Shown piece by piece: positions 5,401 through 48,822 of a stretch of 64,000 nucleotides of DNA. Under the pieces are notes generated by a model. The model saw only the letters and a program-made list of their open reading frames with translations. It was not told the origin of the DNA and searched no databases. Source of the DNA: Eledone cirrhosa (taxonomy: Eukaryota); NCBI GenBank assembly GCA_964016885.1, contig OZ024743.1, forward strand, positions 49,724,001 through 49,788,000, written 5' to 3'. The position numbers were made by a program, and so were the translations under genes. How positions within the stretch are numbered: the first letter of the stretch is position 1; each line of letters begins with the position of its first letter.

Positions 5401-5900
5401 CGTATGTTTAATTAAAAAACATTTAGAAGACCATACGCTAGCAGTTTTAAAATAGTGACTATGTCACTTATTTCTTTTCGGCGAAAGAAGGGAGAGAAGC
5501 TGACAGTCTGTTTCACGCTGGCTGGCGTTCATCAGAGCCGCGATGGTCTTCTAAAAGTTTTTTAATTAAAGATACGGTATATTATGTATACATCGCTATT
5601 TCAGAGCACCAATCCTAATACCTAATTTTTGCTGGACCAGCAATCGCTTTGTATAAACAGCTCCTGATTATTACTGGAATTCTATAAGAATCCAGCTTCT
5701 ATAATTGTTTGCGAAAGCAGGAGAGTACGTGGTTCTGATGAACGCCAACCAGCGTGAAACAGACTGTCAGCTTCTCTCCCTTCTTTCGCCGAAAACAAGT
5801 AAGTGACATAGTCACTACTTTAAAACTGATAGCGTATGGTCTTCTAAATGTTTTTAATTAAACATACGGTATATTGCCAAATATACTATACATACATTCA
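5401..5900. mobile_element. Hammerhead-containing retrozyme-like element, head-to-head inverted arrangement
   Basis: 5401-5540 is the reverse complement of part of 5543-5900, and each arm carries a hammerhead. Homologous to 24197-24738 and, more distantly, to the 310-bp unit at 46-48 kb. Confidence 0.8.
5721..5779 (+). ncRNA. Type I hammerhead ribozyme (second copy on the minus strand at about 5492-5540)
   Basis: GGUU-CUGAUGA-ACGC(CAACCA)GCGU-GAAA-CAG(A)CUG-UC|AGCU: canonical core, stems I-III and a GUC cleavage triplet. Confidence 0.85.
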
Positions 5901-6000
5901 TCACACAAGAATATTTTAGAAGACGCAAAGTCATCCCGGGATTGCAGCTTAATACTAGAAACATGACAACAACAATGAACTTCAGAACTGGGTCTATAAT

Positions 6001-6209
6001 GATTTCTAGTATAGGCACAAGGCCAATAATTTGGGGGGAGGTCGATTAAATCGACCCCAGTTCGTTACTGGTACTTTATTTCATCGACCCCGTAAGGATG
6101 AAAGGCAAAGTTAACCTCGGCGAGATTTGAACTCAGACGGTAAACGACCGTAACTCTATGCTGCACAGCATGATGTCAGACTCTCTACCGATACTGCCAA
6201 TCAACCGCC
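6001..6209 (-). mobile_element. tRNA-derived SINE, family A (MetaSINE-like core)
   Basis: A box TGGCAGTATCGG, B box GAGTTCAAATC and central TTTCATCCTTACGGGGTCGAT..AAGTACCAG. TSD ACTRGGTCTATAAT at 5987-6000 and 6212-6225. Confidence 0.9.
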
Positions 6210-6614
6210 TTACTAGGTCTATAATAAAATAAGGAAACATTGATTGAACTGTTGATTGAACTGAAGAATATAGATATGAAGATAGGAAAGATGTTGAATA
6301 TATATGGAGGTTTGTACCTTCAGGCTGATGGTGATTGACTATACGAGAGAAGAGAAGGCGGGAAAGGATTTATCAACTGTTAGGAGAGAATTTCATTTGA
6401 GAAAGAAAGCTTTAGTGAGTGCCTAGAAAAGTTGTTAACTGAAGTTGTGAAGGGTTCTACGATAGAAGAGGTGATTCAAAGAAAAAGAAAGTCGAAATAG
6501 CCACAGAAGAGAAGGCCAGATTGGAAGCCAAATCATTGTACCCAGCCTATGAAAAGAACACAAGAAATGTCAGAAATAATAAAGACACGTCGACATAGTT
6601 ACAGAAAAGATATC

Positions 6615-6790
6615 GATGGCCCTAGGCACTGAGCTGGCCAGCCGCAGGTGTGAGCCTCGCGAGTTGGAATAGCTCTTCCAGCGCATCTCCCTTACCATCC
6701 TCCGGGGAAACGCCTTCTCCATCCTGTCTGCCGGGGTTGTGGGGAGGCCAGCACGTGGGACCCCATTTGCTCACCATACGGATTAATAAG
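6615..6790 (+). mobile_element. 3' fragment of a CRE-like non-LTR element nested in the R4-like LINE
   Basis: GC-rich island translating EPRELE*LFQRISLTILRGNAFSIL, similar to the C-terminus at 62545-62650. Confidence 0.6.
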
Positions 6791-44690: not shown

Positions 44691-45871
44691 TTCAAAAGTT
44701 TCATACAAGATTTCTTCCTATATATTTCATAATTTCACTAAGGCCTTTGTTTTACGAACACCCCTTGTTTTGTTTATTGTATTAAAACCCCTGTGAACTT
44801 GACAGGAAATCTAGACCAACCTTGACAAGCTGTCAGGTAATTCTATATATAACTCCCTCGCTTATTTCATCAACGTTCTCGTCATAGATAAATATACATA
44901 CATTAAAATTATAAAGCCAGAAGAACACACATACACACACACACACACGCACACATATATATATACATATACACACACACACACATATATATATATACAT
45001 ATATACAAACACACACATATATACATACACATAGATACATCTCTCTCTCTCTCTCTCTCTCTCTCTCTCTATATATATATATATATATATACACACACAC
45101 ACACACACATATATATATATATATATATATATATATATATATATATATATATATATGTGTGTGTGTATGTATATATATATAGATATATACTATTTCTTCT
45201 CTTTTCCTTTGTCATGAATTACAAAAGCCAATCCCTCATAAATAAAAGCCTAGTTTCTCTCTATATATATTTCTTTTGTATATTTCTTTTGTATATACAT
45301 TTCTTTTGAAAGCAGTCAGCTACAAAGAAACTTTTCTGTTATTAATTCTTTCTATTATGAATGTTGTGGAGAGGTGCAATAAATTTGACACTTGTATTTA
45401 AAATGAGAATTTCAGCGATCTAGCCTATATCTCAATGGTGTCAAACCACTGATAATACAATAGGAAAAACCCAGGAAAGATGAAACACCAGTAAGACTTG
45501 CTGTTGCTATGTAAAGACGTCGGTTCATTAAATAATAAATACCATTGTGAAATAGGAGCAGCACTCTGGAAATTGAGAGACATCAAAACGATCGTCATTG
45601 GTTAACAAAAGAACACACGCACGCACGCACACACACACACACACACACACACACACACACACACACACACACACACACACACACACACACACACACACAC
45701 ACACACACACACACACACACACACACACACACACACACACGCACTTACACTCACTTACACACACAGAAACATACACACACATAGATATATACATATATAC
45801 ATACACATATATATATATATATATATATATATATATATATATATATATATATATATATATATATATATATA

Positions 45872-46235
45872 TAGGAACGAGTAGGACCCCGACGACTGGG
45901 TTTCTTCCACCCCCTCTCCCTCTTTCTTCTACTGGCAGGTTCAGCTACCCCTTCCCTCCACAAATTGGCATGATAAAATTATTATGTCTCAACAACAAAC
46001 TTTTGACCAATCCTTGTGACAATCACTTTTACCATATATGGAATTACCCCCTGAGAAGCTCGGCTATTCAAATACCAGGATAAAAATTTTCATTTAGTCC
46101 AGAATTAGCCGTCGAAACGGCTTGAGCTCAGCCGTCGGAGTCCTACTCGTTCCTATTACCCACTCTACTACCCTAAGTATTGAGTACTTTGGTGCGTTAT
46201 GGTCCACCTGGTTCCTCACCACATTTCCTTCGTTA
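45872..46235 (+). mobile_element. (TA)n-embedded hairpin element with about 200 bp of foreign sequence in the left arm
   Basis: TAGGAACGAGTAGGACCCCGACG at 45872, with the right arm and tail at 46097-46235. Confidence 0.78.
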
Positions 46236-46246
46236 TATATATATAT

Positions 46247-48822
46247 GAATATAGACATAGAATATTCGAAAATATTCTGTATGTTTATAATAAACATTTT
46301 GAAGACCTAATCGCTATAGAATAGAATACGTCACGTATTACAATTAGATTCTCGATAAAAGCAAGGGAAGTAATCTACGCGTTTCATTCTAGTTAGAAAT
46401 CATCAGGACTACATATCCAGTGCTTTTATCGAGAATGACACAGCTAGAGACTTATAGAATACTTAGCTGTGTACAGGAACTGGTTTGAAAGAGCGGTTGC
46501 CGGTCCGGCAGAAATTAGAAATTGGAATAAATGCTCTGAAATAGCGATATATATGTGAATATAGACATAGAATATTCGAAAATATTCTGTATGTTTATAA
46601 TAAACATTTTGAAGACCTAATCGCTATAGAATAGAATACGTCACGTATTACAATTAGATTCTCGATAAAAGCAAGGGAAGTAATCTACGCGTTTCATTCT
46701 AGTTAGAAATCATCAGGACTACATATCCAGTGCTTTTATCGAGAATGACACAGCTAGAGACTTATAGAATACTTAGCTGTGTACAGGAACTGGTTTGAAA
46801 GAGCGGTTGCCGGTCCGGCAGAAATTAGAAATTGGAATAAATGCTCTGAAATAGCGATATATATGTGAATATAGACATAGAATATTCGAAAATATTCTGT
46901 ATGTTTATAATAAACATTTTGAAGACCTAATCGCTATAGAATAGAATACGTCACGTATTACAATTAGATTCTCGATAAAAGCAAGGGAAGTAATCTACGC
47001 GTTTCATTCTAGTTAGAAATCATCAGGACTACATATCCAGTGCTTTTATCGAGAATGACACAGCTAGAGACTTATAGAATACTTAGCTGTGTACAGGAAC
47101 TGGTTTGAAAGAGCGGTTGCCGGTCCGGCAGAAATTAGAAATTGGAATAAATGCTCTGAAATAGCGATATATATGTGAATATAGACATAGAATATTCGAA
47201 AATATTCTGTATGTTTATAATAAACATTTTGAAGACCTAATCGCTATAGAATAGAATACGTCACGTATTACAATTAGATTCTCGATAAAAGCAAGGGAAG
47301 TAATCTACGCGTTTCATTCTAGTTAGAAATCATCAGGACTACATATCCAGTGCTTTTATCGAGAATGACACAGCTAGAGACTTATAGAATACTTAGCTGT
47401 GTACAGGAACTGGTTTGAAAGAGCGGTTGCCGGTCCGGCAGAAATTAGAAATTGGAATAAATGCTCTGAAATAGCGATATATATGTGAATATAGACATAG
47501 AATATTCGAAAATATTCTGTATGTTTATATTCTGTATGTCTATATTCACATATATATCGCTATTTCAGAGCATTTATTCCAATTTCTAATTTCTGCCGGA
47601 CCGGCAACCGCTCTTTCAAACCAGTTCCTGTACACAGCTAAGTATTCTATAAGTCTCTAGCTGTGTCATTCTCGATAAAAGCACTGGATATGTAGTCCTG
47701 ATGATTTCTAACTAGAATGAAACGCGTAGATTACTTCCCTTGCTTTTATCGAGAATCTAATTGTAATACGTGACGTATTCTATTCTATAGCGATTAGGTC
47801 TTCAAAATGTTTATTATAAACATACAGAATATTTTCGAATATTCTATGTCTATATTCACATATATATCGCTATTTCAGAGCATTTATTCCAATTTCTAAT
47901 TTCTGCCGGACCGGCAACCGCTCTTTCAAACCAGTTCCTGTACACAGCTAAGTATTCTATAAGTCTCTAGCTGTGTCATTCTCGATAAAAGCACTGGATA
48001 TGTAGTCCTGATGATTTCTAACTAGAATGAAACGCGTAGATTACTTCCCTTGCTTTTATCGAGAATCTAATTGTAATACGTGACGTATTCTATTCTATAG
48101 CGATTAGGTCTTCAAAATGTTTATTATAAACATACAGAATATTTTCGAATATTCTATGTCTATATTCACATATATATCGCTATTTCAGAGCATTTATTCC
48201 AATTTCTAATTTCTGCCGGACCGGCAACCGCTCTTTCAAACCAGTTCCTGTACACAGCTAAGTATTCTATAAGTCTCTAGCTGTGTCATTCTCGATAAAA
48301 GCACTGGATATGTAGTCCTGATGATTTCTAACTAGAATGAAACGCGTAGATTACTTCCCTTGCTTTTATCGAGAATCTAATTGTAATACGTGACGTATTC
48401 TATTCTATAGCGATTAGGTCTTCAAAATGTTTATTATAAACATACAGAATATTTTCGAATATTCTATGTCTATATTCACATATATATCGCTATTTCAGAG
48501 CATTTATTCCAATTTCTAATTTCTGCCGGACCGGCAACCGCTCTTTCAAACCAGTTCCTGTACACAGCTAAGTATTCTATAAGTCTCTAGCTGTGTCATT
48601 CTCGATAAAAGCACTGGATATGTAGTCCTGATGATTTCTAACTAGAATGAAACGCGTAGATTACTTCCCTTGCTTTTATCGAGAATCTAATTGTAATACG
48701 TGACGTATTCTATTCTATAGCGATTAGGTCTTCAAAATGTTTATTATAAACATACAGAATATTTTCGAATATTCTATGTCTATATTCACATATATATCGC
48801 TATTTCAGAGCATTTATTCCAA
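46247..48822. mobile_element. Palindromic array of 310-bp hammerhead-containing units (retrozyme-like), about 4.1 units on each strand
   Basis: ATAGACATAG at 46251, 46561, 46871, 47181 and 47491. Inverted TATATTCACA at 47541, 47851, 48161, 48471 and 48781. Confidence 0.92.
47692..47734 (+). ncRNA. Type I hammerhead ribozyme (also 48002, 48312, 48622 on plus; 46370, 46680, 46990, 47300 on minus)
   Basis: GUAGUC-CUGAUGA-UUUCUA(AC)UAGAAU-GAAA-CGCG-UA|GAUUAC: 6-bp stem I, palindromic stem III ACGCGU and a GUA triplet. Confidence 0.88.

Follow-up and report, generated by a model that had tools for sequence, protein, structure and literature searches.

Three inverted insertions in the window

The window analysed here is a stretch of 64,000 nucleotides (nt) from the genome of Eledone cirrhosa (assembly GCA_964016885.1, contig OZ024743.1, positions 49,724,001 to 49,788,000 of the forward strand). 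It contains three insertions built from related non-coding units of 310 to 317 nt with a hammerhead ribozyme motif, which are likely to be retrozymes. Each insertion consists of two arms that meet 5' to 5', and in the genome such arms usually end at two fixed positions of the unit, here called the S and L sites, one per arm.

Locus 1 belongs to family A. Its left arm (5400..5542, minus strand) runs from position 276 to position 101 of the unit, numbered from the predicted site of cleavage, has a non-canonical outer end and contains a type I hammerhead core at 5502..5535 (minus), with predicted cleavage after the GUC at 5502. The right arm (5543..5901, plus strand) comprises 1.14 units with a 24-nt internal deletion and ends at the S site (u133); its type I core at 5735..5768 (plus) has stem II ACGC/GCGU, stem III CAG/CUG and predicted cleavage after 5768. 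Locus 2, of family B, has a left arm of ~1.2 units (~24196..24582, minus), with its outer end at the S site against a (TA)n run and a type I core at 24326..24359 (minus) that carries CUGAGGA and a U-U mismatch in stem II. Its right arm (24588..24738, plus) is 0.48 unit long and ends at the L site, u168, also against (TA)n.

Locus 3 is of family C, with 4.2 units in each arm. The left arm (~46246..47529, minus; units of 310 nt) ends at the S site, u130, and the right arm (~47535..48823, plus) at the L site, u165, each against (TA)n. The 5-nt junction insert at 47530..47534 duplicates nearby left-arm sequence, and a 15-nt period is seen at 47512-47547. A scan for the core pattern CUGANGA...GAAA placed four hammerheads on the minus strand of the left arm (C3 at 46406, 46716, 47026, 47336) and four on the plus strand of the right arm (C3 at 47698, 48008, 48318, 48628), the other cores found in the window being those at 5535 (minus), 5735 (plus) and 24359 (minus). 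The 35-nt interval from S to L, or 'tail' (48789..48823, plus), contains a block common to families A, B and C and is terminal in one arm only. One monomer from cleavage site to cleavage site, the predicted RNA circle, spans 47729..48038 (plus) and has a calculated fold of -72.3 kcal/mol (z -4.2).

A sequence-only reading of this DNA had described left arms in hammerhead-minus and right arms in hammerhead-plus orientation; this is borne out at all three loci, the 0.48-unit right arm of locus 2 having no hammerhead. The stem sequences that it quoted agree with our listing of the helices. Its unit lengths of 293-317 bp are to be replaced by 316, 317 and 310 nt, the value of 293 probably having come from the 24-nt deletion in locus 1, and the block GAGCG..GGTCC that it took to be common to the loci differs at two positions in locus 1. 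Loci 2 and 3 also share a setting, each lying at a (TA)n run that ends a copy of one other interspersed repeat (window 23972-24196 and 45873-46246).

Families and sampling

Units are 316 nt in family A, 317 nt in B and 310 nt in C, numbered from the predicted cleavage site as u1. Families A and B are 87% identical, and either is 66-67% identical to C. The GC content is 34-37%, and the longest ATG open reading frame (ORF) in tetramers of the units is 15-36 residues, implying no protein coding; no ORF with reverse transcriptase (RT) and GIY-YIG endonuclease domains occurs in the units.

Family C has 17,898 + 171 exact hammerhead matches in the 3.0-Gb genome, with 1,208 S-type ends, some of them internal to arrays, and 1,024 L-type ends; at ~9 units per locus, ~18,000 units give an estimate of ~2,000 loci. 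Families A and B yielded 2,814 and 2,706 candidates, 40 of which were scored for each, and together 942 exact S and 463 exact L ends. Our locus set (n=102) comprises 100 fetched loci, minus one duplicate (L130, the same as L129), plus the three window loci: 26 of family C, 37 of A and 39 of B. The fetched loci were the best matches to a monomer query, which biases the set towards full units; in the family C sample a rare variant is over-represented as well, and five of its loci were chosen via their junction. Multimers are present in C, the arms of A and B reaching ~2 units at most in this sample.

Junction polarity, end sites and targets

Junction polarity, which the earlier reading set as a refuting test had it been random, is far from random and leaves that reading standing. 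Among the 102 loci, 55 junctions are 5' to 5' and one is 3' to 3' (p ~2e-15), and 42 of 45 neighbouring end pairs in a second sample diverge. Whether most loci are two-armed or simple tandems, the other half of the same test, depends on the family: two arms are the rule in the young family C (23/26) and narrowly so in B (20/39), and the minority in A (12/37), with 46 single-armed loci and one complex locus overall.

The outer, 3' ends of the arms cluster at the S site (~u130-134) and the L site (~u165-172), which lie 34-35 nt apart and enclose the block common to all three families. Among the 55 two-armed loci, 43 combine S with L, none S with S and none L with L; eleven have one non-canonical end, and L054, cut by a contig end, was set aside. 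Wherever both ends of a two-armed locus are true ends that can be classified, the two arms thus use different sites (43 of 43). The second, position-ordered sample was taken from the first 256 Mb of contig C1, as the first 100 S and first 93 L pattern matches, with 21 array-internal S matches removed and neighbours paired within 8 kb. It gave 41 divergent S+L pairs, one divergent S+S pair, one convergent pair and two same-strand pairs, the single divergent S+S pair being a locus with an S-like variant in its units. The A and B end lists, inspected by eye, contain just four divergent S+L pairs in their shared range.

Most insertions lie in simple repeats: (AT)5 adjoins 109 of 142 canonical ends (44/48 in C, 28/44 in A, 37/50 in B), and target-site duplications are illegible inside (TA)n. 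The C arms measure 0.7 to 14.5 units, and the lengths of the two arms at a locus are uncorrelated (rho 0.02), the S arm being the longer in 12 of 22. Two side observations concern ends and targets. A family A copy outside (TA)n, L086 (G000:C2:17.21 Mb), is flanked by a ~38-nt near-duplicate resembling a long target-site duplication. Arrays in which every unit matches the S-end pattern occur at G000:C1:105.76, 165.01 and 169.70 Mb, probably through a fixed S-site change, which suggests that re-copying of an insertion's end gave rise to a new variant of the unit.

One haplotype per insertion

The two arms of a family C insertion carry the same variants. Of the 23 two-armed C loci examined, 11 have fixed variants, and in all 11 these occur in both arms. 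The loop II variant of the window's locus is present in 171 of ~18,069 units (0.95%), yet is found in both arms at 16 of 16 two-armed loci that carry it; among the first 100 matches listed for this variant, all ten two-armed loci are concordant and represent five haplotypes, and two different concordant haplotypes sit only 10 kb apart. The older A and B arms are several percent apart. Their shared variants amount to 13.5% in A and 11.7% in B, compared with 4.5% and 3.4% between loci, the B figure being lowered by the inclusion of L110, where an unrelated copy stands in for the 'second arm'. At window loci 1 and 2 the two arms have no variant in common. Concordance of the arms shows a common source for each insertion, not strictly one molecule.

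Hammerhead motif and RNA fold

In our listing of the helices, each of the three families forms helices I, II and III around the full core, with a GUC or GUA triplet. The hammerhead call was based on the core pattern and helix pairing; among 150 of the 196 Rfam matches listed for the window, mostly microsatellite matches, there is no hammerhead family. Self-cleavage of the A, B and C hammerheads is predicted.

Stem II gives the clearest comparative signal. The covariation that the earlier reading had asked after is present between families: in 16 aligned motifs, 12 from A-C and four from other families of the genome, 84% of stem II cells are paired and 16 carry changes on both sides, a result equalled by none of 500 shuffles and not approached by slid controls (at most 59%), although the sequences are related and this is not a probability. 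The MAFFT alignment left stems I and III out of register, and only stem II was scored against controls. The further proposal that the ribozyme is under selection holds between families and is inconsistent among genomic copies, where core divergence is 1.0% vs 2.6% in A and, in B, 3.0% vs 2.6%; purifying selection at this level shows in A, is missing from B, and was not upheld. The circular fold of the monomers is more stable than that of shuffled sequences, with z values of -4.2 (A), -3.5 (B) and -6.7 (C), and the minus strands are stable too, so that this is not strand-specific. In family C, stem III has 2 bp and a palindromic loop, an arrangement reported to cleave poorly as a monomer and to work as a dimer (PMC4209133).

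Taken together, the hammerhead, the short low-GC units, the lack of coding capacity and the stable monomer fold make it likely that families A, B and C are non-autonomous, non-LTR retrozymes (LTR, long terminal repeat).

Coding Penelope-like elements

A profile search with PF01541 gave 10,596 candidates in the genome. ORFs of up to 1,096 residues match both RT and GIY-YIG profiles, most RT scores falling just below the curated cut-off, and in these ORFs a CxxC motif precedes the endonuclease. Such a motif is described for the Neptune and Nematis clades of Penelope-like elements (PMC8557442), and from the profiles and the CxxC motif the RT + GIY-YIG elements of this genome are probably Neptune-type. 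Long stop-to-stop frames in L161 (938 residues), L162 (844) and L163 (1,096) are candidate intact elements of this type. The footprint of the retrozymes recurs in all three two-armed RT + GIY-YIG loci (L166, L167, L175): their arms diverge, one stopping at a short and the other at a long end, and TA-rich repeats lie at or beside them. None of these loci has the retrozyme tail.

The L161 family carries a degenerate hammerhead-like motif near its 3' end. A hammerhead at L175 was considered as a terminal repeat of the coding element and rejected, being a separate small insertion. A fourth hammerhead family, D, is ~74% identical to C over 80 nt, in the ribozyme region only; it also makes small insertions in (TA)n, joined 5' to 5' and long at one end, short at the other (L171:7990-8200, L175:3130-3326, and in L163 and L167). 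Within the window, 15817-17179 (plus) and 22456-22839 (minus) resemble by eye Penelope-type RT and GIY-YIG fragments, with no Pfam match at E 0.001.

A model for insertion

What process gives two arms that meet 5' to 5', each with its own fixed 3' end and both with one haplotype? Twin priming on a single template, its circular and linear variants taken together, is strongly favoured by our data, and its strongest signs are exactly these: the two fixed 3' ends, one per arm, and the identical haplotypes in both arms. We consider it probable, on present evidence, that the loci are non-autonomous retrozymes inserted in trans by the RT/GIY-YIG protein of a Penelope-like element, probably Neptune-type, through twin priming on a monomer circle. 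The earlier proposal, that the inversion is a product of integration in which two cDNAs are primed from both sides of a break, predicts minus-strand left arms and plus-strand right arms, because antisense cDNA is added to the top strand from the left 3' end and to the bottom strand from the right one; this is the orientation seen. The circular template we infer.

In this model, tandem transcripts would self-cleave and close into a monomer circle of ~310 nt. The enzyme, probably a dimer, would bind one RNA at the conserved tail region and cut both strands of a (TA)n target, and each target 3' end would prime one cDNA, one at the S site and the other at the L site 35 nt downstream. Each RT may then circle the template for an independent distance, from 0.2 to 14.5 units, before end-joining repair connects the two cDNA ends in a 5'-to-5' junction at variable positions; single-armed loci would reflect failure or later loss of one arm. 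The strict use of S with L, together with the shared haplotype, is most simply explained by two active sites on one RNA, and variants fixed in every unit suggest a bottleneck at the monomer stage, in line with the circle model of PMC4209133. A Penelope-like protein studied in vitro cuts and extends both strands, begins reverse transcription at two internal sites, one on either side of the tail, and has a predicted dimeric form (PMC11167929). More tentatively, and with slightly less than even confidence, we suggest that one enzyme dimer, sitting on a single RNA circle made by the ribozyme, primes at the two ends of a double-strand break, with each subunit fixed to its own start site and both RTs rolling independently, so that these loci would be a direct print of the Penelope integration step. 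If so, one mechanism would account for the tandem repeats of Penelope-like elements as well as for their head-to-head inversion and tail, and ~2,000 near-identical natural products and a 310-nt template would be at hand to test it.

Several observations weigh against this model or parts of it. In vitro, the start sites are alike on both strands, so that strict S+L pairing is not seen there, and ribozyme cleavage is dispensable for insertion (both PMC11167929). At 50 GIY-YIG loci of the 10,596 candidates there is no terminal repeat like A, B or C, save two nearby retrozyme insertions; among the 30 examined of 36 matches to the degenerate tail motif, 29 align to A, B or C at 71-98%, one resembles a short relative, and none adjoins a coding 3' end. 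There is no RNA run among the public runs listed as containing the 310-nt unit. The S and L windows were defined after the data were seen, the A/B end lists contain, by eye, one divergent and one convergent L+L pair, and one locus, L092, is 3' to 3'. Arms of A and B are short (~2 units at most), and 43 of the 76 A/B loci are single-armed. Junction spacers are skewed short, below half range in 17 of 23 C (p 0.02) and 23 of 32 A/B loci (p 0.01). Junction microhomology, with a mean of 1.86 vs 0.76 nt at 21 loci, falls to 1.06 (p 0.15) without the five junction-chosen loci and is not claimed. In L038 (G000:C3:282.88 Mb) the innermost left-arm units switch haplotype, and the right arm mirrors one of the variants in its first unit, the junction being a product of template switching or of local conversion. 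Finally, a single molecule, one RNA pool shared within a cell, and conversion between the arms would all give the same haplotypes.

A first rival is a linear template, with two-ended priming on a tandem transcript from a homogeneous source array in place of a monomer circle. Such a template accounts equally well for the polarity, the S+L ends and the shared haplotype, fits insertion in vitro without ribozyme cleavage (PMC11167929), and has no need of monomer cleavage by the family C hammerhead, whose 2-bp stem III and palindromic loop are of the type reported as poor in this respect (PMC4209133). It is made unlikely, in our judgement, by the private variants that are fixed in every unit of an array, which would require either a monomer bottleneck or concerted evolution. 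No non-fixed variant, at 13 loci, stands equidistant from the outer end in both arms; this is a weak argument, as many of them are out of reach of the shorter arm or postdate the insertion.

A self-primed, fold-back hairpin, as proposed for Penelope elements (PMC3846280), offers a different route to the inversion: endonuclease resolution would leave the one-sided tail, and deletions at the centre would shift the junction. Head-to-head palindromes are then expected and the shared haplotype is automatic; the short-skewed spacers, the six of 23 C junctions within 25 nt of symmetric and the mirrored variant in L038 also fit. We nevertheless find the hairpin distinctly improbable, given that 17 of 23 C and 28 of 32 A/B junctions are more than 25 nt from symmetric, that the longer arm may be either one, by many units, and that the two end sites match the kind of target-primed RT starts mapped in vitro (PMC11167929). 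As to assembly artefacts (palindromic long-read chimeras) or inversion after insertion, the ~100% identity of the C arms and the difficulty of assembling palindromes have to be set against arms that end at different fixed unit positions, flanks that differ, unequal lengths, A/B arms that have diverged by several percent, and a one-sided polarity, and we regard this origin as very improbable indeed.

Comparison with known systems

In L1 twin priming, two target ends prime two cDNAs on one RNA, giving a 5'-to-5' inversion; the position of the second priming is internal and varies, and there is hardly any overlap between the arms. In contrast, the two starts in families A, B and C are both fixed, at a distance of 35 nt, and each arm repeats the sequence of the other.

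The families resemble the metazoan non-LTR retrozymes of Cervera & de la Pena 2020 (PMC7229834) and Li, Clavereau & Pollet 2026 (bioRxiv 10.64898/2026.07.22.740005) in their non-coding ~300-nt tandem units with GC below 45%, one type I hammerhead per unit and a strongly self-paired monomer, and in co-occurring with Penelope-like elements, on which dependence has been proposed. Inverted two-armed insertions, two fixed ends and (TA)n targets are, in contrast, absent from the available text of both papers. Li et al. attribute tandems to local unequal crossover, whereas here the arrays and the inversion look co-integrated. Circles and cleavage have been shown for some of the published families; those of A, B and C are predicted.

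Similarities to endonuclease-positive (EN+) Penelope-like elements, which include the Neptune, Naiad and Penelope clades (PMC8557442, PMC3846280, PMC11167929), are equally marked: a 5'-truncated head-to-head inverted copy, a tail of 30-40 nt confined to one end, a preference for targets that are (TA)n or AT-rich, and a hammerhead, in their case in the terminal repeat. The A, B and C insertions differ in having no ORF and in that both arms can be long multimers, of up to 14.5 units. Published explanations for Penelope-like elements, as far as the available text goes, invoke self-priming or resolution by the endonuclease and do not include two primings, each from a start site of its own, and the origin of their tandem and inverted insertions and one-sided tail is described as still open (PMC8557442, PMC11167929).

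Head-to-head inversion, a one-sided tail and microsatellite targeting are thus already published for Penelope-like elements (PMC3846280, PMC8557442), and both the element class and its qualitative architecture are known. We found no description in the open-access literature of two-armed retrozyme arrays, or of the rules that each arm has one start site and each insertion one haplotype; parts of this may already stand in subscription papers or preprint supplements. So far, co-occurrence and similar sequences have been the basis for linking retrozymes with Penelope-like elements; here the complete insertion footprint is present in three retrozyme families. Twin priming and self-priming are told apart by the two quantitative rules, the single start site of each arm and the single haplotype of each insertion, both open to testing in vitro with an RNA of 310 nt. 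The main use of these loci is as a test set for the mechanism of Penelope integration.

Further observations

Hammerhead-like motifs of other families occur in the window at 35940 (plus) and 57157 (minus), and the type at 57157 recurs in L141, L171 and L174.

The family C unit at window:47648-47957 was found in 20 public sequencing runs with 18 organism labels from 17 studies. Of seven contig sets examined, six show one near-identical copy at a depth of 5-365, five of these self-closed, and one run has a depth of ~5e5. Where bases differ in the public-run copies, the differences are known from this genome too. The unit's presence in runs with other labels is most simply read as cross-contamination from a high-copy sample, although close relatives or horizontal spread may be the source. 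Closed contigs of 340 nt are also seen in public runs, and a tandem array or a circle fits them equally.

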